The translations under genes and the position numbers were made by a program. The notes beneath the pieces were generated by a model. That model ran no database searches and was not told the origin of the DNA. It saw only the letters and a program-made list of their open reading frames with translations. A stretch of DNA of 42,841 bases from a virus: IMG/VR virus record IMGVR_UViG_3300045988_007281. One strand, written 5' to 3'. Of the stretch, positions 360 to 42,841 are shown in pieces. Position 1 is the first letter of the stretch; each line of letters starts with the position of its first letter.

Positions 360-578
360 ATGGAAAACATCAAGAAGCGGCTCGGCAATCTGCTGAGCGT
401 CAAATCTATCGTCACACTGGTGCTGACGGCGGTATTTGCGTACATGGCAGTCGCCGGGAAAATCTCGCAGGACTTTATGATGGTGTATACCGTCGTGATC
501 GCGTTTTACTTTGGCACACAGAGCCAGAAAGCGCAGGACGCGATTGACAACGCCACGAAGGAGGATGCGCAGAAATGA
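360..578 (+). CDS. holin (two transmembrane segments)
   Basis: Internal ATG of the 285-578 ORF, preceded by GAAAGGAG. 72 aa with TM stretches SIVTLVLTAVFAYMAVAG and FMMVYTVVIAFYFG and a charged C-terminus. ATGA overlap with the endolysin gene. Confidence 0.7.
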   Translation: MENIKKRLGNLLSVKSIVTLVLTAVFAYMAVAGKISQDFMMVYTVVIAFYFGTQSQKAQDAIDNATKEDAQK

Positions 579-1285
579 GCATCAAGATCGGGCAGGCCAG
601 TCTCGGCGAGACGGGCGGCCGCAATCAGCAGCCCGGCAATCAGACCGGGCGGGAGCTGAATATCTCCAACTGGTACAATGGCCGCTGGCTCGGCATCTTG
701 CGCTACAAGAGCCGCAAAAAAGCCGAGCGGGCCGCGCAGACGTGCGAGGCAGCGATTAAAAACCGGAATATCGGTTACGACATGGCCGACAGGAACACGG
801 CGTATGAGGCCGCCAGAGCCGTCGGGTGGGACGTGAGCAGGATCACAAAGCCAGTGGAGACGGACTGCTCCGCGCTCATGATGCTCTGCGCCGTGGCTGC
901 AGGCTGCGCGTCGGTCGAAGCGCTCTACAAAAAGCAGGGCAACAGCTGCACGACATACTGCATGCTGCACGATTGGCCCGCAACGGGCGATTTTGTATTG
1001 CTGACCGGCAGCAAGTATCTGACGACGGACGCCAATCTCCTGCGCGGGGACGTGCTGGTAAGCGAGGGCCATACCGTGATGGCCCTCGAAGATGGAAAAA
1101 ATGCAGAGGAGGAAACAGAAATGGTAGAAAAGAGCAAGATCATCGTGGACGGCAAGGAAGTCGCCGTTGAGCGCATCCTGAAGAACGGCACGAATTACAT
1201 CAAAGTGCGCGATCTGGCCGCCGCGCTGGATCTCGAAGTGAGCAACAAGGGCAATATCGCTGTGCTGAATCACAAGGAAAAGTAA
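575..1285 (+). CDS. endolysin: NlpC/P60- or Amidase_5-like peptidoglycan hydrolase with a C-terminal copper-amine-oxidase-N-like wall-binding domain
   Basis: Motifs IGYDMADRN..DCSALMM..GHTVM (Cys/His hydrolase pattern). C-terminal IIVDGKEVAVERILKNGTNYIKVRDLAAALDLEV. Located directly after the holin. Confidence 0.75.
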   Translation: MSIKIGQASLGETGGRNQQPGNQTGRELNISNWYNGRWLGILRYKSRKKAERAAQTCEAAIKNRNIGYDMADRNTAYEAARAVGWDVSRITKPVETDCSALMMLCAVAAGCASVEALYKKQGNSCTTYCMLHDWPATGDFVLLTGSKYLTTDANLLRGDVLVSEGHTVMALEDGKNAEEETEMVEKSKIIVDGKEVAVERILKNGTNYIKVRDLAAALDLEVSNKGNIAVLNHKEK

Positions 1286-3292: not shown

Positions 3293-3832
3293 ATGAACGG
3301 CTATCAGCAAGCGATCCTCATGCTGCTCGGCGTTGATACCTGCGGCAAGTTCCTTGTGCGCTGCGTTGATCGCTGGTACATCGACGCGGTTGCCGAGCTT
3401 TTCCCAACCGCGCCATACCTCCAGCACCGCGCAGATGGAAAGAAAGACTTTTGGGTTGTGAAATCCGCGAAGGTGCATCTTCTCCCGTCCCTCGCCGATG
3501 TGACGGATTGGCAGGGATTTTGCCGCGGTGTGGTGGAGCTGCAAGCTTGCCTTGATCTCTGGCCGCACAAGGTACGTGGCAAGCCCATCAGGACACCACG
3601 GCTGCGGGTTTACGGGCAGCCTGAGCTTTTAACGCAAGTATCCTCGCATTTTCCGGCAGGGCCGAAAAAGCTGCAATTTCGGCGCACGCAGACCGGCGAA
3701 ACGTGCGTCCTGTACTATCAAAGCCCGGCAGAAGTTGCTGATATTCTCGATTCGCTGCACGGCGAACCTTGCAACCACGAACTCTGGGCCCGCTGGGACG
3801 CGCTCATGCAACAAAACAAGCCCGTGGAATAA
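3293..3832 (+). CDS. hypothetical protein (179 aa), possibly a degenerate double-LAGLIDADG-like fold
   Basis: SD AAGGAGG upstream of internal ATG 3293. Segments LMLLGVDTCGKF and GFCRGVVELQACLD loosely resemble the two LAGLIDADG helices. Confidence 0.55.
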   Translation: MNGYQQAILMLLGVDTCGKFLVRCVDRWYIDAVAELFPTAPYLQHRADGKKDFWVVKSAKVHLLPSLADVTDWQGFCRGVVELQACLDLWPHKVRGKPIRTPRLRVYGQPELLTQVSSHFPAGPKKLQFRRTQTGETCVLYYQSPAEVADILDSLHGEPCNHELWARWDALMQQNKPVE

Positions 3833-4990: not shown

Positions 4991-5019
4991 TTCGGGAATT
5001 CCGAACAGTTGAACGATCA

Positions 5020-5035
5020 AAATCGTGGCCACGAT
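5020..5035. repeat. perfect 16-bp palindrome AATCGTGGCCACGATT
   Basis: Read directly from the sequence. Preceded by a second hairpin, GTTCGG-GAATT-CCGAAC, at 4989-5005. Confidence 0.8.
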
Positions 5036-5065
5036 TGAGATAAATCTTTTGAATCTACGAAAGGA

Positions 5066-5833
5066 ATGAAAAATATGAGTTTGAATGACGGCGCCCCGAC
5101 CATGACAATGCCCGTCGCGCCTACCGGTATGACAGGCGGCGGCTGGGGCGGCTTCGGCGGCGATAATGGCTGGTGGTTCATCATCCTGTTCCTTGCCATT
5201 TTCTGCGGCTGGGGCGGCAATGGAAACGGCTTCGGCAACAACGGCAGAAATTCCGGCGGCGTTGTAGACGGCTATGTGCTGGCCTCTGACTTCTCCAACA
5301 TCGAGCGCAAGATCGACAGTGTAAATCAGGGACTTTGCGACGGATTTTACCAGCAGGCGCAGCTTGTCAACGGCGCCAACATGGCGATGGCAAACGGCTT
5401 TGCTCAGGCCGAGCTTTCCCGCTGCAACCAGCAGGCCGCGCTCATGCAGCAGCTTAACGCGATGCAGATGCAGGCGCAGGAGTGCTGCTGCGAAAACCGC
5501 GCTGCAATCGCCCAGGTGCGCTATGACATGGCGACGCAGGCGTGCGACACCCGCAACACCGTGCAGAACACCACCCGCGACATCATCGACGCAATGAACT
5601 GCGGCTTCCGCAGCATCGACCAGCGTCTGACGGCGCAGGAGCTTGCGGCGAAGGACGCGAAGATTGCCGAGCAGAACCAGCAGCTTTTCGGCTACCAGCT
5701 GGCGGCGTCGCAGGCGGCACAGAACAATTACCTTGTTTCCACGCTTCGCCCGAGTCCCAGCCCGGCCTATGTTGTAGCGAATCCGTACTGCTGCAACAGC
5801 GGATACAACTACGGCTGCGGCAACTGCGCGTAA
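5066..5833 (+). CDS. Gly/Trp-rich membrane-anchored, Cys-rich coiled protein (alternative start at 5075)
   Basis: GGGWGGFGGDNGWWFIILFLAIFCGWGGNGNGFG, a QECCCENR motif, and C-terminal PYCCNSGYNYGCGNCA. Confidence 0.6.
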   Translation: MKNMSLNDGAPTMTMPVAPTGMTGGGWGGFGGDNGWWFIILFLAIFCGWGGNGNGFGNNGRNSGGVVDGYVLASDFSNIERKIDSVNQGLCDGFYQQAQLVNGANMAMANGFAQAELSRCNQQAALMQQLNAMQMQAQECCCENRAAIAQVRYDMATQACDTRNTVQNTTRDIIDAMNCGFRSIDQRLTAQELAAKDAKIAEQNQQLFGYQLAASQAAQNNYLVSTLRPSPSPAYVVANPYCCNSGYNYGCGNCA

Positions 5834-7441: not shown

Positions 7442-8545
7442 TTACTCTGGCGAGTCGTTTTGCAACTGATTTACGGCATCGACCATGCCTTTCATGTCCG
7501 GATGTACGTACCGTTGGGTAGTGGTTATCTTCGTGTGGCGCATGATTTCCTTGATCGTAAACGGATCAATGTTTTTCATTGCGAGGGCTGTAGCGGTTGT
7601 ATGGCGGCATGAGTAAGGTGGTAGCTTTTGCACTCCGGCAAGCTCCAAACACTCATAATATCTCTTGTAAAAATTATCTTTGTTTATGCAGCAGATATTT
7701 CCGACGCGCGATTTGCTTTCTTCGCATAGTTCATGCAGCACCGGCGCAACGAAATCCGGGAAGACCATAGGCGTTTCCTTCCGCTTCTTTGTCTTTATGC
7801 CGCCTCGGACGATCTCATTCTTTTCAAAGTCAATCATATCTTTCTTGAGTTTTAGAAGCTCACCGGGCATCATGCCGGTATAAATCATCGTTAAAATAAA
7901 CCCAATGAAGTGGTCTTTTGCATACGCTTCCCATAGCTTTTTTACGTCGGTGTCGGTGAACGGCTCCGGCGTTTTTTCTTCAAGCTCCGGAAGCTTTATG
8001 TACTTTGCAAGATTCACGGTTGTTTGCTTTTCTGCGATTGCGAGGTTATAACAGTGGGAGAGGACAGTTTTCATATCTTTCCGCGTGTAATAGGTGCTGG
8101 CGTTGCGGTCGATAACATCCTGTATCTGCGCGATGGTAAGCGCGTCGATCTCACGGTCGGCGATTTCTCTCATGCGCTCGAATGCCTTTTCCGCCGCGCC
8201 CTGACGATCAGCCGATAAGGATAGATAATCCCCACGCAGATATGTTTTGTAGTATTCTCTGAGAGTGGGGCTTCGCTGCTCTTCCTTCGGAGGGTTTGCG
8301 GCATATTGGAGGGCGGTGCGCTTTGATGTAAACCCGCCTTTTGTTCGCATCTTTTGCCGAAGCTTGTCGTTCTCGTCTAGGTAAGTTCTTTCTGTCCAAC
8401 GCGCCGTCCACGTCTTCCCTCGCTGGTAAGCGCTTCCTTGCCCGTTCCCGCGCGTCCGGCTTCGCCGCGCTTCCTGTTTTTTCCCGCACCAGCAACAGTA
8501 GGGCGCGCCGTCTGGAATTTCTTTTTTACACTTGATGCACTCCAT
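7442..8545 (-). CDS. int: tyrosine recombinase (phage integrase) with an N-terminal zinc ribbon
   Basis: CIKCKKEIPDGAPYCCWCG at the N-terminus. C-terminal SCRHTTATAL..HTKITTTQRYVH (R..H-x-x-R..Y catalytic pattern). ATG 8545 preceded by GGAGG. Confidence 0.9.
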   Translation of the reverse strand: MECIKCKKEIPDGAPYCCWCGKKQEARRSRTRGNGQGSAYQRGKTWTARWTERTYLDENDKLRQKMRTKGGFTSKRTALQYAANPPKEEQRSPTLREYYKTYLRGDYLSLSADRQGAAEKAFERMREIADREIDALTIAQIQDVIDRNASTYYTRKDMKTVLSHCYNLAIAEKQTTVNLAKYIKLPELEEKTPEPFTDTDVKKLWEAYAKDHFIGFILTMIYTGMMPGELLKLKKDMIDFEKNEIVRGGIKTKKRKETPMVFPDFVAPVLHELCEESKSRVGNICCINKDNFYKRYYECLELAGVQKLPPYSCRHTTATALAMKNIDPFTIKEIMRHTKITTTQRYVHPDMKGMVDAVNQLQNDSPE

Positions 8546-9101
8546 GTTTCCCTCCACGTTCTTTTCGGATCGCGTAGAAAGTAATTGCCGAAGCCAGAAC
8601 TGAACCTACGATCAGGGCGATACACGCCCATGCGGTTACGGACAAGTCTCCATCTCGAATGAGGCCTGCGTTCCGACTCTGCGCATCCGTCACAAGACAG
8701 GCAACCAGGGAAAAGGAGAGCAGCAAACAAAATAGGGCGAGAACGTAACACATTGTATGTGTAGACCTTATCTGCGCGCTCTGTAGGGCTGCTGCTGCCT
8801 CCAGCTTGGCGTTTTCAAGCTCGACACGATGGATCTGCTTGGTCAGCTTTTCCGGGCTTCCGACGGGATTCTCAAGGCCGAACAGCTCGTCGAGCGACAG
8901 ACCAAGCGCTTTACATATTGCGGCCGAGTTATAAAGCCGTGGATCCGCTTGTGTTCCGGCATATAATCGGCTCACGGTGGAGAAGGAAACTCCGGACTTT
9001 TCCGACAGCTCCTCCAGCGTCATTCCGCTGCGATCTTTTGCATTTCTGATTTTCCCATGATACGCGCCGATAAACGGCGCGAGTTCCTGTATTGCGGACA
9101 T
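8526..9101 (-). CDS. membrane-anchored XRE-family HTH regulator (HTH + coiled coil + 2 TM)
   Basis: GGAGG 7 nt upstream of ATG 9101. MTLEELSEKSGVSFSTVSRLYAG HTH. TM stretches MCYVLALFCLLLSFSLVACLV and AWACIALIVGSVLASAITFYAI. The 3' end overlaps the int start by 20 nt. Confidence 0.7.
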   Translation of the reverse strand: MSAIQELAPFIGAYHGKIRNAKDRSGMTLEELSEKSGVSFSTVSRLYAGTQADPRLYNSAAICKALGLSLDELFGLENPVGSPEKLTKQIHRVELENAKLEAAAALQSAQIRSTHTMCYVLALFCLLLSFSLVACLVTDAQSRNAGLIRDGDLSVTAWACIALIVGSVLASAITFYAIRKERGGKHGVHQV

Positions 9102-9397
9102 TGGTGCGCCTCCAATCGCAGATTGTGTTGTTATTTCCTGCATTTTCCGTGTGAAAACGCAAACTATGAGAAGAAAACGCAAAACTCGGGCTTTTTTTAC
9201 AAACATTATCTGGTACAATGAAAACGTAGCAGATAGTTCCTGAGCCCTGCATCTGCTGAAATGGCCCCACCGTATGTTCCAGATACGATGGGGCCGGTCA
9301 AACCAAATATTATATCAAATCATCAGTCCCATAAACTGTACACCATTGTATTCCTGATTCCCAAAAATAACGCGGTCTGTTTGTTCATAATACCATG

Positions 9398-9634: not shown

Positions 9635-10744
9635 TCATCTTGGATTGCAAGTGCCGCAAGCTCCGTATCCGGCGGCTATGGCGTCGTCAGAGGAATCGAA
9701 CCAGATTTCGTTTTCACTTAGTATCTTTTTGGCCCATCGGCAACTCGGTTTGTGGAATTTGTCGCTATCCTTGCTTGCGACGAATTTTCCAGCGGACTTA
9801 CCCTGAGAAGGATCTGGAAAAGTAGTTTCCACAGGTGTGTCTGCCTCGCTGACGTCGGAATTGACGTCAGAAGAGAGCACGTCGGGATTGACATCCTTTG
9901 AATTTGCTTCCTGCAAGAGATTGCCGGACTGATCTATAAAGCGGACATTGATATTATCAACCGGCTCACCCGTGCTGAAATAGTGGTACAGGCCGCCGCT
10001 CATATAAAATGCAAGAGCCATGATAGATTCCTGGAAGCTTACAGTGTCGGAAGACAGCGTGACGGTGAATTTTGTGTAGTCGTCTGCGGCGTCAATCGCG
10101 GTGACGTTCGGGTAGTCCTCAGAGCCTACCATATCGGCAAGGCTGCTGTCGATCTGCTCCGCCATATCCTGCATCAGCTTTTTGTGGCAGGCTTCCGTCA
10201 TAACGTACGTCACGGAGCCGTCCGCATTCAACGTGGCGGACTTGAAGCCGTCTGTCTGCGCGACTTTTGCATCAAGCTCCTCCTGCGTGGCGTTTTCACC
10301 TACGTAGTCGGACGGAATCGTGATTTCAACTGTTCCGCCGCTGAACAGCGTCCCGGAGTGCTTTTCCACATTGAAGGATTGCGAAGATTGTTCAGGTGCA
10401 TCCTGAGCAGTGGACTGTTCGGGCGTTTCCGGCGTCTGGGAAACCGCCTCCTGTGCCTGTGCGGGCGGCTGATCCGCCTGCTTAGGTTGCTTCGGAAAGA
10501 GCAAGATGCCGAGAGCGGCCAATACGGTGACTCCGATCAGAATAAAATTCCTCGAAGAGCCGGTTTTTCTCCTGTTTTTTGCGCCGCATACCTTGCAAAC
10601 GCGTTCACTGGCGTTGATCTGAGCACCGCAAGAGCGGCAGATCATCTTCCGGTTCGGCGTGTCACAGTGCGGGCAGAACTTCTCCCGTTCCGGGAACTCT
10701 GCCCCGCATCTTGGGCACTGCACAATATATTCATTTTTAGTCAT
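9635..10744 (-). CDS. double zinc-ribbon / single-TM / extracellular-domain protein with a C-terminal Cys/His metal-binding motif
   Basis: AAGGAG upstream of ATG 10744. CPRCG..CPHC and CRSCG..CKVCG. TM FILIGVTVLAALGILLF. P/Q/E-rich linker. C-terminal FHKPSCRWAKKI..AGYGACGTCNP. Confidence 0.7.
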   Translation of the reverse strand: MTKNEYIVQCPRCGAEFPEREKFCPHCDTPNRKMICRSCGAQINASERVCKVCGAKNRRKTGSSRNFILIGVTVLAALGILLFPKQPKQADQPPAQAQEAVSQTPETPEQSTAQDAPEQSSQSFNVEKHSGTLFSGGTVEITIPSDYVGENATQEELDAKVAQTDGFKSATLNADGSVTYVMTEACHKKLMQDMAEQIDSSLADMVGSEDYPNVTAIDAADDYTKFTVTLSSDTVSFQESIMALAFYMSGGLYHYFSTGEPVDNINVRFIDQSGNLLQEANSKDVNPDVLSSDVNSDVSEADTPVETTFPDPSQGKSAGKFVASKDSDKFHKPSCRWAKKILSENEIWFDSSDDAIAAGYGACGTCNPR

Positions 10745-10938
10745 CAATGCGGCACTCCTTATATGGTTTGTAAACAATTACATATTACCACTTAGAACCA
10801 GCAACCGCAATGTAGAAGCTGCACAAAAATAAACGTCGGAATTTGGAAGAATGGAGATAGGAGCTGAAATGAACAAAAAAGAAGCCGCGACAATCAAGGA
10901 ATTGGTGGAAACTATATCAAGATTCACGCCCGAAAAAC

Positions 10939-11274
10939 TCAATCTTTTTCTATCTGCTTCGCGAGATTTAATAGAGCGGATGCAAGCTCGGGACGATTCA
11001 TGCAAATCCGAATAATCTGCTGGATATCCTCCGGCAAGTCACGAATAAGCGCTTCGCCATCGGCGGGGCGCTCTTTTTTTATGCCTTTGCCCATCAGTTC
11101 TTCTACTGTTACGCCGAAGTAGTCGGCGATTTTTTGCGCATTTACGTCAGAGGGTTTTGTCTTCCGCGCTTTCCAACAGCTTATTGTTGATTTGTCAATT
11201 CCGAGTTCTCGGCCAACGTATGCAGGGGTTTTGTTTACAGAAGCGCAAAGCGCAACAAAGTTGTCATAAAACAC
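10939..11274 (-). CDS. CI-like XRE-family repressor (GTG start)
   Basis: KTPAYVGRELGIDKSTISCWKARKTKP HTH. AGAGGTG 7 nt upstream of GTG 11274. Faces the switch region. Confidence 0.75.
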   Translation of the reverse strand: MFYDNFVALCASVNKTPAYVGRELGIDKSTISCWKARKTKPSDVNAQKIADYFGVTVEELMGKGIKKERPADGEALIRDLPEDIQQIIRICMNRPELASALLNLAKQIEKD

Positions 11275-11320
11275 AATAATACACCTCTGGAATTGTTAAA
11301 TACGACGAAAGTTGAATTAG

Positions 11321-11328
11321 TTTGCAAA
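11321..11328. promoter_or_regulatory. operator candidate, palindrome TTTGCAAA (within AGTTTGCAAA)
   Basis: Perfect 8-bp palindrome 7 nt upstream of the -35 at 11335. Same 10-mer as 11381-11390. Confidence 0.5.
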
Positions 11329-11334
11329 TAGCGG

Positions 11335-11363
11335 TTGACAGTTGAGAATGTTTGATGTATTAT
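11335..11363 (+). promoter_or_regulatory. rightward promoter candidate
   Basis: TTGACA, 17-nt spacer, TATTAT. Confidence 0.6.
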
Positions 11364-11382
11364 TGCCTTGTGGTTGAAAAAG

Positions 11383-11390
11383 TTTGCAAA
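11383..11390. promoter_or_regulatory. operator candidate, second TTTGCAAA palindrome
   Basis: Identical AGTTTGCAAA 10-mer, about 20 nt downstream of the -10 at 11358-11363. Confidence 0.5.
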
Positions 11391-11718
11391 AGACAAGACC
11401 CAAGCAAATCAACGCTTGCGCCAATGCTAATGTGTTTCTCGCAAATTCATAGTAGCACAAACAGTAAACAATTTCAACAACAAATTTCAAAAGTTGACTG
11501 CGGCGAAAAGAAAAGCCGCCCGTGGTTCGTTCACGAGCGGTTTCCCCCAGAGTTGTTTACCAGAACGCGCTGCACAGGATGGTCGTCTGCATTACTTCGC
11601 ATCCGTCCGAATTGGTAGAGTTCTTTCCACCGGCTTGGCAATGCCATCCTGACACAAAACGAACTTACGCTTCTATGACGCGCCGCTCACTTTGGCAGTT
11701 CTGGCGCTGCCCCTTGCC

Positions 11719-11775
11719 CTAACGCATCACGCCGTTTCTTTGGTCTGGAACTGGCAAGTTCAAAAGTTTGGTCAT
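11719..11775 (-). CDS. 18-codon upstream/leader ORF (MTKLLNLPVPDQRNGVMR)
   Basis: AGGAGG 7 nt upstream of ATG 11775, about 35 nt downstream of the minus-strand promoter at 11815-11844. Stops at TAG 11719-11721. Confidence 0.35.
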   Translation of the reverse strand: MTKLLNLPVPDQRNGVMR

Positions 11776-11814
11776 GACAACCACCTCCTGAATTTACCTA
11801 AAAGGGCTAATGGC

Positions 11815-11844
11815 AGTATAGCACGTCCGGGGCGTTGCAGTCAA
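11815..11844 (-). promoter_or_regulatory. leftward promoter candidate
   Basis: Minus strand reads TTGACT, 18-nt spacer, TATACT, with a TGC immediately 5' of the -10 (extended -10-like). Confidence 0.6.
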
Positions 11845-11871
11845 CAATTTTAACAGAATGGAGGTGTGTAT

Positions 11872-12072
11872 ATGCCTGAAAAATGGACAGGCGTACTGAT
11901 CGGGAAAATGCACAATGCGCGTGTTTCATACGACGATCTTGCCGCAGAGCTTGGACTTACAAAAGGCTATCTGTCCTTGATCTTGAACGGGAAAAGAAAT
12001 CCGCCGGGTGCGAGGAAGCGCTTGGAAGGCGCGGTTAAGGCCGTCATCGAACGAAGAAAGGAGGAAAAATGA
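11872..12072 (+). CDS. Cro-like small HTH protein
   Basis: GGAGG 7 nt upstream of ATG 11872. SYDDLAAELGLTKGYLSLILNGKRNP. Confidence 0.7.
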   Translation: MPEKWTGVLIGKMHNARVSYDDLAAELGLTKGYLSLILNGKRNPPGARKRLEGAVKAVIERRKEEK

Positions 12073-12269
12073 CGCTGGACGATATCCGGGCAATGTCGAA
12101 GCCAACGATCCTAGCAAGCGAAGCGGCGCAGGTGCTCGGCTGCGACCCGCAATGGCTTCGCTTGATGGCGAGGGAACAGCCTGAAAAGCTGGGCTTCCCG
12201 GTCTGCTGCACAAGCAAGCACAGAGTGAAGATCCCGAGAGAGCCGTTTTTGCGGTTTCTCGGAGCATGA
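12069..12269 (+). CDS. excisionase-family/MerR-like HTH protein
   Basis: ATGA coupling. ILASEAAQVLGCDPQWLRLMAR..VKIPREPFLRFL pattern. Confidence 0.55.
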   Translation: MTLDDIRAMSKPTILASEAAQVLGCDPQWLRLMAREQPEKLGFPVCCTSKHRVKIPREPFLRFLGA

Positions 12270-12325
12270 GGAGGAACAAATGAAAGTTAGAACTGCCGGG
12301 AACAGGAACAGAAGGAGGATGCAGC

Positions 12326-12541
12326 ATGGCGGAAGTGAAGACCTACACCCTGACGCTGGATGCGCAGGAGCTGCATGATCTGATCGAGGCGGTGCTGGTC
12401 TGCGAGTGCCAGGCAGCGCAGATCATTAACGGACTCAAGCGAAAGGGACTGGATCTGGACGCGCAGAAGCTCGTGACACAAAACGCCCGTCTGGCGCGTC
12501 TCGTCAGGCGGATGCAGGAGACGAAGGAGGACGCAGAATGA
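12326..12541 (+). CDS. hypothetical protein (71 aa)
   Basis: AAGGAGG 7 nt upstream. ATGA coupling to the next gene. Confidence 0.55.
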   Translation: MAEVKTYTLTLDAQELHDLIEAVLVCECQAAQIINGLKRKGLDLDAQKLVTQNARLARLVRRMQETKEDAE

Positions 12542-42594: not shown

Positions 42595-42841
42595 ATGCGG
42601 GTAAAAGGCAAGTGGAGCAAGGGCGAAATGGCGCGAACCATTGTGTTGTATCTGCTCCAGCTCATCACGACGGTAATTGTCTGGGCCTGCGCTCTGAAAA
42701 CCGTCGCCGTCCTAATTGCAGTCATCCGCAGCCCGGAGCTCGGCGCGTCGGTAGACCTGTCCGACGTGCTCGGCTTTACCGGCTGGGCAACCATCACAGA
42801 GCTTGGCCTGCTTGCCTTCAAGCGGGTTTTTGCAAAAAAGA
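42595..42841 (+). CDS. holin-like two-TM membrane protein, N-terminal part (continues at 1-116)
   Basis: GGGAGG 5 nt upstream of ATG 42595. The ORF is still open at the window end. Confidence 0.6.
   Translation, partial: MRVKGKWSKGEMARTIVLYLLQLITTVIVWACALKTVAVLIAVIRSPELGASVDLSDVLGFTGWATITELGLLAFKRVFAKK
42743..42841. repeat. terminal overlap copy 2 (identical to 1-99)
   Basis: Base-by-base identity read directly from both ends of the window. Confidence 0.95.

Follow-up and report, generated by a model that had tools for sequence, protein, structure and literature searches.

Introduction

The lysis-lysogeny switch of coliphage 186, as in P2-type phages generally, places its promoters pR and pL face to face (Callen, Shearwin and Egan, 2004, as cited in PMC5001618 and PMC11318856), and promoter interference at both short and long spacing has been established for 186 and lambda (PMC5001618). 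In the Clostridium clostridioforme LM41 prophages phi5 and phi12, convergent promoters predicted by software in the repressor-cro region have been read by analogy with 186 (PMC11318856). Here we analyze the IMG/VR virus record IMGVR_UViG_3300045988_007281, a stretch of 42,841 nucleotides that we call the window, in which a CI-like repressor gene and a Cro-like gene (CI and cro hereafter) are separated by an over-long intergenic gap. We find that the gap holds a gene for the structured RNA FuFi-1, and we consider it on balance probable that it combines a convergent, 186-like switch with a FuFi-1 cassette whose RNA is antisense to the cro leader.

The lambda OOP RNA, the lambda PRE transcript and the sar RNA of P22 are phage cis-antisense systems, and morons are autonomous promoter-gene-terminator inserts in prophages. 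Control by antisense RNA together with transcriptional interference between convergent operons has been established for prgQ/prgX of pCF10, a system with the RNAs Anti-Q and Qs in which the overlap is 223 nt, RNase III cleaves the duplex and interference adds to the effect (PMC3181467). FuFi-1 was described in 2017 by Weinberg et al. as belonging to a group of four highly conserved motifs that precede terminators; the main text lists neither a function nor a gene association for it, and its discoverers picked it out, along with few other orphan bacterial RNA motifs, as likely to be biochemically sophisticated in function (PMC5737381). The searchable literature holds no known role for FuFi-1.

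Results

The gap between CI and cro holds a full-length FuFi-1 gene

The sequence and the open reading frame (ORF) list of region 10400-12400 put exactly 597 bp (11275-11871) between the start codon of CI (GTG at 11274, leftward) and that of cro (ATG at 11872, rightward), the same figure given by an earlier reading of this DNA that was made without database searches (the sequence-only reading). That reading described the interval as a single long, non-coding switch. We find instead that the Rfam model RF02986, FuFi-1, matches the minus strand at 11726..11510 over its full length (model positions 1-175 of 175), with 100.6 bits against a gathering cutoff of 59.6 and an E-value of 8.8e-21. This was the sole Rfam match in the whole window at the gathering threshold, and in 11200-11950 it was still the sole match at E <= 1. 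The Rfam core of this copy is about 217 nt long and includes an insertion of about 45 nt in the variable hairpin. The conserved single-stranded nucleotides of the family are kept (CAUAGAA, UGCA and GGUAAACAA, for the consensus AUAGAA, UGCA and GGUAAAcAA), and the first hairpin diverges from the model (GCAGCGCCAGAACUGC versus the consensus GCaGAACcAAAACuGC).

An intrinsic terminator found independently of Rfam at 11540..11516 on the minus strand, consisting of a 9-bp stem with 7 G-C pairs followed by CUUUUCUUUU and extending through its tail to 11507, proved to be the 3' hairpin of the model (tail CTTTTCTTTT). The FuFi-1 transcript should accordingly be about 300 nt long, running from about 11808 to about 11507 and stopping before CI. 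Read in the rightward direction, the same hairpin is followed by a tail of merely UUUCCCCC, and therefore should not stop the rightward transcript from the CI side that is described below. On inspection, the terminators of the two classes of FuFi-1 loci defined below (A and B) did not differ clearly in bidirectionality.

The hairpin that follows AUAGAA carries the loop GUUCGUU (11664..11658, minus strand), which is complementary to the terminator loop AACGAAC (11531..11525, minus strand). Loop-loop complementarity of 6-9 nt is present in 36/41 distinct FuFi-1 sequences and is achieved with many different sequences; the mean is 6.8 for loops of the same RNA and 3.85 for loops combined across RNAs. 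These data point to a predicted, covarying kissing-loop pseudoknot between the two hairpins. Because the terminator loop covaries with an upstream hairpin, the terminator is best regarded as part of the fold, which favors the terminated RNA as the functional product. RNAalifold run on the eight closest FuFi-1 copies said nothing on the Rfam fold, as the conserved core is identical in all eight.

With respect to protein-coding potential, the sequence-only reading had seen no credible ORF in the gap. This was borne out for the ORFs of up to 88 aa that can be called there mechanically, none of which has a convincing ribosome-binding site, but it passed over an ORF-like leader element of 18 codons (MTKLLNLPVPDQRNGVMR, then stop) at 11775..11719 on the minus strand, with an ATG at 11775 and a strong Shine-Dalgarno sequence, AGGAGGTG, at 11789..11782.

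Predicted promoters for CI and cro face each other

Promoters were scanned for with a sigma-70-type consensus scored out of 12, and all promoters, transcription starts and terminators given here are consensus predictions. The best rightward site is TTGACA-17-TATTAT at 11335..11363 (11/12), as the sequence-only reading had proposed; it adjoins CI, resembles an early lytic promoter PR and has a predicted start near 11370. Its score was reached by 10/2000 composition-matched shuffles of the CI-side region. The leftward site named by the same reading, TTGACT-18-TATACT at 11844..11815, was also reproduced (10/12), and it has a TG-extended -10 and a predicted start near 11808. A third site, TTGAAA-17-TACTAT at 11477..11449 on the minus strand (TG-extended -10, 9/12, predicted start near 11442), had been overlooked, as had the FuFi-1 gene, its terminator and the 18-codon element. 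This site faces PR, with the predicted starts only about 72 nt apart, and is most likely the promoter used by CI.

The sequence-only reading had assigned 11844..11815 to CI, so that the CI and cro mRNAs would converge and overlap for about 440 nt. The site is good by consensus and does aim at CI, and some read-through of the terminator at 11540..11516 would carry its transcript into CI. However, a full FuFi-1 gene and a good intrinsic terminator lie between this promoter and CI, and a separate CI-directed promoter follows the terminator in comparable loci (locus L087 excepted) and is also found in L175, a relative that lacks the insert. In addition, 11844..11815 lines up with the TG-extended -10 that is conserved among FuFi-1 units of unrelated phages, including phages in which the downstream gene is not CI. 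Its -10 (11815-11820) precedes the Rfam model start by 88 nt; strong promoters stand 78-96 nt 5' of the model start in L087 (12/12; 96 nt), L107 (89 nt), GenBank record MT835537.1 (our L238; 84 nt) and L100 (78 nt). Given this alignment with the conserved FuFi-1 promoter elsewhere, 11844..11815 most likely drives FuFi-1 rather than CI, and we give the assignment to CI only a slim chance of being right.

What survives of the earlier account is that the cro transcript opposes leftward transcription for hundreds of nucleotides. Convergent transcription likely does occur, but between the cro leader and a small RNA: the leftward RNA would be FuFi-1, which stops near 11507, and the partner of PR for CI expression is probably the promoter at 11477..11449, about 72 nt away rather than about 440. 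An antisense overlap is likewise retained, with the cro leader and the small RNA as its two strands, and CI mRNA would enter it only through terminator read-through.

No rightward promoter near cro was detected in 11507-11871, and the scan agreed with the sequence-only reading that no promoter in divergent orientation adjoins either CI or cro and that no lambda-type, back-to-back PRM/PR pair is present. Without a promoter of its own, cro must be transcribed from PR. We infer that the cro mRNA begins near 11370, beside CI, with a leader of about 500 nt to which the entire FuFi-1 unit is antisense: on the predicted transcripts, the unit (about 11808..11507) falls entirely inside the PR-to-cro leader (about 11370-11871), which is the geometry of a cis-antisense RNA. 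A candidate pairing within this leader, in which CACCTCC at 11783-11789 would sequester the cro Shine-Dalgarno sequence, was rejected, as the fold of 11740-11890 had z = -0.43 and the pairing was not formed.

Relatives resolve the gap into a switch and an exchangeable cassette

Comparison with relatives from IMG/VR (58 loci for CI, 62 for cro) revealed the modular anatomy of the gap. The helix-turn-helix (HTH) domain of CI travels together with 11275-11500 at 96-99% identity, and 11501-11871 forms a separate block. The FuFi-1 copies of the window's relatives score 82-98 bits; in L036 and L041 (94-98 bits) FuFi-1 is 74% identical to that of the window and the variable hairpin has been replaced. 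In the heteroimmune relatives L019, L048 and L049 the same FuFi-1 block is joined to a different CI-proximal region. Five relatives lack FuFi-1 and hold in its place, within the same promoter/terminator arrangement, a 43-aa ORF that matches phrog_5079 (E 3.7e-9), a family of unknown function. This basic, lysine/serine-rich ORF (MPKNSVRTSAKVASKASKTLSSKKSSKTSKQLAASALSNRRSK) lies at 3594-3725 in both L042 and L046 and also occurs in L043, L045, L047 and L174. L175, from an Oscillospiraceae metagenome-assembled genome (MAG), has no insert: its cro-CI gap is about 210-219 bp, its CI N-terminus and cro are 56% and 34% identical to those of the window, and a CI-directed promoter beside cro faces a cro-directed TTGACA-17-TAAACT beside CI, with predicted starts about 59 nt apart.

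Together, these comparisons show that the 597-bp gap is the sum of a switch of about 220 bp and an inserted cassette of about 365 bp with a promoter and terminator of its own. The single long non-coding switch of the sequence-only reading is thus replaced, and its surprising length is explained away by the inserted FuFi-1 cassette. As in a moron, the slot is variably filled (FuFi-1, divergent FuFi-1, the phrog_5079 ORF or nothing) and the unit is flanked by repeats. The G+C content is 35% in the CI-proximal segment (11275-11500), 53% in the FuFi-1 cassette and 54% in the genome, which fits a promoter- and operator-dense region beside an insert of different origin.

The face-to-face arrangement was not restricted to the window. 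In a recurring layout, the FuFi-1 promoter, FuFi-1, its terminator and a CI-directed promoter are followed, 40-85 nt on, by a cro-directed promoter beside CI. This order was seen in L019/L048/L049, L110/L138/L150, L087, L135/L142/L173 and MT835537.1, except that no CI-directed site was seen in L087. Across ten further loci and L175, the predicted starts of the facing promoters are separated by 42-84 nt. Beside CI, the cro-directed promoter reaches 10-12/12 in ten of these loci (L019, L048, L049, L110, L150, L087, L135, L142, L173 and L238), and in 8/10 the score was reached by no more than 18/2000 shuffles. The CI proteins are 26-41% identical, over the HTH region, to the CI of the window and across groups, and the groups therefore represent distantly related lineages. 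The three-promoter layout thus recurs in at least five distantly related phage lineages, and the comparison with related phages for which the sequence-only reading had called bears out a lytic promoter beside CI. In MT835537.1 (26021-31121), an unannotated 'Bacteriophage sp.' from human faeces, FuFi-1 (95.6 bits) lies between genes for a 147-aa CI-like and a 66-aa cro-like protein, and the gap is again exactly 597 bp even though these proteins are unrelated to those of the window. A blastn search of 50,697 GenBank phage records with the window region and the canonical FuFi-1 unit returned one unannotated faecal phage only.

These loci also bear on whether a conventional promoter close to cro, either weak, activated or dependent on an alternative sigma factor, could have escaped the scan, which would make the antisense leader irrelevant. 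The scan was limited to sigma-70-type sites, and a weak TTTACC-18-TATAGC (8/12) can be read at 11794-11823. Such a promoter would have little room, however: the cassette boundary, marked by the operator-like site O4 (below), is only about 5 nt from the cro Shine-Dalgarno sequence, and what lies beyond is swappable cassette. Relatives of the L042 type have the same cro and a wholly different cassette sequence, in which no cro-directed promoter was detected. Moreover, none of the ten comparable loci has a cro-directed site above 9/12 between cro and the FuFi-1 3' end, whereas all ten have a site of 10-12/12 beside CI. We find a hidden promoter of this kind scarcely credible.

Operator-like sites bracket PR and lie at the cassette edges

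The sequence-only reading had drawn attention to two copies of a palindrome, TTTGCAAA, at 11321 and 11383, 62 bp apart and bracketing PR. Both are present, and each forms the end of a longer, 18-nt direct repeat, GTTGAAnnAGTTTGCAAA, whose copies start at 11311 and 11373. The first copy forms the operator-like site O1 (GTTGAATTAGTTTGCAAA; 11311..11328, plus strand), which ends 6 nt upstream of the PR -35, and the second forms O2 (GTTGAAAAAGTTTGCAAA; 11373..11390, plus strand), which is 62 bp from O1 and covers approximately +4 to +21 of the PR transcript. On the minus strand, O3 (11462..11479) overlaps the -35 of the CI promoter and O4 (11838..11855) overlaps the -35 of the FuFi-1 promoter; these two sites are the copies of an 18-bp direct repeat on either side of the cassette. 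Four copies of the 15-nt core GTTRAAWWWGTTKRC are present in the 42.8-kb window, always within the gap (11311 and 11373 on the plus strand, 11464 and 11840 on the minus strand), against 0.13 occurrences expected, a count that is partly circular because the pattern was derived from the same four copies.

The cassette edges additionally carry an inverted repeat (GTTGACTGCGGCG), with its left arm at 11493-11505 (plus strand) and its right arm at 11833-11845; in L042 and L046 these arms enclose the alternative, protein-coding cassette. O4 may be read in two ways, as a regulatory site or simply as a by-product of cassette insertion. Outside the immediate family, L175 has a related operator motif, (G/A)TTGAAAAAGTTAAC, in matching positions, and pairs of operator-like sites 62-64 bp apart, of different sequence, bracket the cro-directed promoter in L110, L150 and L135. 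The bracketing of PR is therefore a real and recurrent design feature.

FuFi-1 lies opposite a cro-like gene in most other viral loci

To place FuFi-1 more widely, a 5'-hairpin DNA pattern was used, which retrieved 95 further IMG/VR loci with 66 distinct RNAs; all of those tested (11/11) were genuine FuFi-1, with 80-146 bits. A first DNA pattern (CATAGAA..TGCA..GGTAAACAA) had been discarded, as 0/11 tested among its 20 loci were FuFi-1 and its hits were chance matches. Gene maps were drawn from our own ORF calls and a hidden Markov model of the flanking XRE-family cluster for the 81 loci with enough flanking sequence. In 64/81, a small HTH gene lies directly 3' of FuFi-1 in convergent orientation, typically about 8 nt from the terminator (class A), and in 47 of those 64 the small gene is paired divergently with a larger, CI-like HTH gene. 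FuFi-1 lies inside the cro-CI gap in seven loci (class B), apart from the window family and MT835537.1. Pfam annotation of three class A loci gave the order early genes (DUF2800 / PD-(D/E)XK), FuFi-1, cro-like HTH gene, CI-like HTH gene (ImmR-type or S24 LexA-type), then an M78 ImmA-like protein where present, and finally an integrase. Where class A loci have two good promoters, these stand back to back between cro and CI in 25/27.

A common rule holds across these arrangements: FuFi-1 is encoded on the strand opposite cro, no more than a few hundred nucleotides into the early transcript, and is usually co-directional with CI. The idea that the FuFi-1 promoter is generally under the control of immunity operators was tried and rejected, as the longest word it shares with the cro-CI region measured 9.3 for true pairs and 8.8 for mismatched loci (32 class A loci). 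One locus, L088, carries two type II hammerhead ribozymes (118-181 and 503-566, plus strand; 60.6 and 45.1 bits) within 1 kb of its FuFi-1 (1007-1171, minus strand).

This distribution allows us to weigh the possibility that FuFi-1 is trans-acting, moron-like cargo that occupies a permissive slot and targets a host factor or a competing phage, in which case the switch would be unaffected by its loss. Its build as an autonomous promoter-gene-terminator unit agrees with this, as do the occupation of the same slot by the phrog_5079 gene in other relatives and its emptiness in L175, the retention of the core and the covarying kissing loop across phages with unrelated flanking genes, and, in class A loci, the absence of operator words common to the FuFi-1 promoter and the cro-CI intergenic region. 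Weinberg et al. also see features of sophisticated biochemical function in the motif (PMC5737381). Yet the placement is non-random, with FuFi-1 adjoining and antisense to a small cro-like HTH gene early in the transcript in most of the 81 loci; the FuFi-1 promoter of the window bears a copy of the switch operator motif; and transcription of cro must cross FuFi-1 wherever FuFi-1 sits in the gap. On these grounds we rate the cargo explanation as somewhat unlikely.

A conserved leader precedes most viral FuFi-1 units

Most viral FuFi-1 units have a conserved 5' extension of about 200 nt that lies outside the Rfam model (for example L108, 7091-7323 on the minus strand, and L099, about 5000-5211; seen in loci from L079 to L173) and that matches no separate Rfam family. 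Its parts follow in the order TG-extended -10, small hairpin, GGAG(G), a start codon that is mostly TTG (or ATG), and a short MTKLLxLP element. This 'MTKLLTLPVLLR'-like element has 11-18 codons and is followed in most loci by about 150 nt of further conserved sequence before the core. A regular expression for a Shine-Dalgarno sequence, a start codon and an ORF of 11-25 codons with an xKxLLxLP(V/A/C) core 5' of FuFi-1 matched 81/93 loci, a count that is partly built in because the expression required [LMCIF]P[VACL]; a few of the 81, such as those in the L100/L135 group, may be spurious. The coding signature of the leader ORF is weak: although some substitutions are synonymous, third-position entropy is only slightly above that of positions 1 and 2. 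A 1-nt indel (CCTGTTC / CCCTGTTC) preserves the nucleotides and not the reading frame. The element may thus act either as a peptide or as an RNA or DNA element.

Such a leader led us to consider that the FuFi-1 unit is a PRE-like establishment leader or attenuator, whose terminator would normally stop transcription but be read through in response to a signal such as translation of the Leu-rich leader ORF, a ligand or a protein. The read-through RNA would be CI mRNA in the window, and both anti-cro RNA and CI mRNA where cro lies between FuFi-1 and CI. FuFi-1 upstream of a co-directional CI, with an antisense cro between them, has the geometry of lambda PRE. Besides the window, 7 class B loci and 47 class A loci have FuFi-1 upstream of and co-directional with CI; in those class A loci only the small antisense cro gene stands before CI. 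The conserved Shine-Dalgarno sequence, start codon and short, Leu-rich ORF-like element 5' of the structure would suit an attenuator. On the other hand, the terminator loop is locked into the fold by the covarying kissing loop, as if the terminated RNA were the product, and the U-tracts are strong. In both layouts a promoter is predicted for CI itself, and in 11 loci, mostly of low GC, no co-directional CI-like gene was detected downstream. No antiterminator pairing was identified, although no systematic search for one was made. For all its attractive geometry, PRE-like read-through is weaker than the cargo explanation, and we hold it to be improbable.

Flanking genes and the window as a whole

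CI (10939..11274, minus strand) starts with GTG and encodes a 111-aa XRE-type HTH protein that matches Pfam HTH_3 (1.4e-7) and, weakly, Phage_CI_repr (1.5e-3), as well as PHROG families of transcriptional regulators and repressors. cro (11872..12072, plus strand) encodes 66 aa with an HTH_3 domain from an ATG preceded by the Shine-Dalgarno sequence GGAGGTG at 11860-11866. The labels CI and cro are reasonable because the former gene shares its strand with the integrase gene (7442-8557) and the latter heads a rightward block that includes an AAA_24 protein (Pfam). The CI-like protein is a mosaic: residues 1-68/76 (the HTH) and 58-111 occur apart, with different partners, in loci L020-L058, which suggests domain shuffling at the immunity gene.

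Two leftward genes lie between the integrase gene and CI. One encodes a 230-aa XRE-type HTH protein with a hydrophobic C-terminal segment (8526-9218, minus strand), and the other a 380-aa protein with an N-terminal double zinc ribbon and a C-terminal match to an Ada-like metal-binding domain (9635-10777, minus strand); either protein could have a role in immunity or induction. Within the CI coding region, a strong terminator-like hairpin is present in the antisense direction (11048-11082, plus strand; 11 pairs, 8 of them G-C, then CTTTTTTTAT), shortly after a plus-strand ORF of 54 aa (10851-11015) overlapping the 3' end of CI. This hairpin may be a chance occurrence or a stop for antisense transcription entering CI.

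Bases 1-99 of the window recur exactly at 42743-42841, which makes it probable that the window represents an entire phage genome of 42,742 bp, circular (or terminally redundant), assembled with an overlap. The closest genome matches to its CI were in an uncultured Clostridia MAG and an Oscillospiraceae MAG, and its viral relatives appear to originate from gut-type metagenomes.

Discussion

Sequence and comparison establish the anatomy of the locus, the modularity of its cassette, the lack of a promoter near cro and the recurrence of the face-to-face pair, whereas transcript ends and regulatory effects are inferred. In the model that we favor, the switch part of the locus (about 11275-11480) would comprise a strong PR beside CI, a weaker CI promoter facing it, O1 and O2 around PR, and O3 on the CI -35. 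The cassette (about 11493-11855), oriented like CI, would add its own promoter with O4, the leader, the Rfam core and the terminator. In a lysogen, CI bound at O1 and O2 would shut PR, and the CI and FuFi-1 promoters would fire. Firing of PR would interfere with the CI promoter 72 nt off, through a sitting-duck mechanism or occlusion, and polymerases from PR would collide with those from the FuFi-1 promoter about 440 bp away (collision interference). FuFi-1 is perfectly complementary to the cro leader and would therefore be able to act as a lysogeny-side brake on cro, by interference and/or by formation of an RNA duplex.

Several observations weigh against this model. Every promoter, start and terminator in it is a consensus prediction, with the CI promoter reaching only 9/12, and the gap contains 3 promoter-like sites where 1.6 +/- 1.4 are expected, a count not above chance. 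The lack of any excess of shared words in class A loci indicates that control of the FuFi-1 promoter by the immunity repressor is not general. The slot can hold an unrelated protein gene, which means that the cargo itself may not belong to the switch. Finally, the conserved multi-helix fold, the conserved loop nucleotides and the covarying kissing loop would be superfluous in a plain cis-antisense RNA and argue for an additional or different function exerted in trans. Given the conserved fold and the exchangeable slot, FuFi-1 may act in trans, either as well as or instead of acting on cro.

More tentatively, and short of what we would call probable, FuFi-1 could be a dedicated lysis-lysogeny RNA of phages of Firmicutes and Fusobacteria, always antisense within a few hundred nucleotides of the start of the cro or early transcript and, as a rule, located 5' of the repressor gene in the same orientation. 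The full unit would then promote lysogeny, whether as an antisense brake like OOP or PRE or as a conditional terminator that senses a signal. If true, this would assign a biological role to an orphan class of structured RNA.

The FuFi-1 family, the face-to-face switches of 186 and P2 and the predicted promoter pairs in C. clostridioforme prophages were already known. The antisense placement of FuFi-1 at cro, its insertion in convergent switches, the unmodelled leader and possibly the kissing loop appear to be unreported in the accessible literature. FuFi-1 is hereby placed consistently at the control point of temperate phages, antisense to cro, beside XRE-type regulators and, in the window, within a predicted face-to-face switch, which gives it a concrete and testable context. 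Our data further indicate that 186-like convergent switches recur in phages probably of gut Clostridia and that the space between switch and cro is an exchangeable cassette slot. For annotation, the lesson is to search any 'non-coding' cro-CI gap that seems too long for RNA genes it may contain before an exotic switch is invoked.

Compared with the FuFi-1 family as described in Rfam, the window copy has the expected full-length match well over the cutoff, the conserved elements and the 3' rho-independent terminator, and its host, to judge from the MAGs that match its CI most closely, may be a member of the Clostridia (Firmicutes). It differs in its extra hairpin insertion of about 45 nt, its diverged first hairpin and its location in a cro-CI gap and, like most viral copies, in having a conserved 5' leader outside the model.

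Like the switch of 186 and P2, the locus has predicted lytic and lysogenic promoters that converge, at about 72 nt in the window, with the lytic promoter predicted to be the stronger (11/12 versus 9/12 by consensus score), and by analogy the repressor, through interference, would indirectly favor its own promoter. The likeness that we claim is one of layout; the repressor in the window is a small XRE-type HTH protein of a probable Clostridia phage, with generic Pfam domains. Unlike 186, the window has a second leftward promoter, about 440 bp off, for a terminated, structured RNA before cro. A further parallel is with phi5 and phi12, Clostridia prophages with face-to-face promoters that are likewise known from bioinformatic prediction; the passages considered here mention no RNA gene in their gap (PMC11318856).

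With OOP, PRE, sar and the pCF10 system, FuFi-1 shares the predicted character of a short, terminated RNA opposite an early or regulatory transcript, to which convergence adds interference, and Qs of pCF10 also starts with a short peptide ORF. In contrast to those element-specific RNAs, FuFi-1 is widely conserved, predicted to be pseudoknotted and common to phages with unrelated flanking genes, and unlike pCF10 the window has no RRNPP-type peptide receptor near FuFi-1. The cassette resembles morons in being autonomous, in being present, absent or exchanged among close relatives, in its short flanking repeats and in its orientation for expression from a prophage. It departs from them in that its cargo is a structured RNA rather than a protein, and in that it is inserted inside the lysis-lysogeny control region, where it is crossed by the early transcript.

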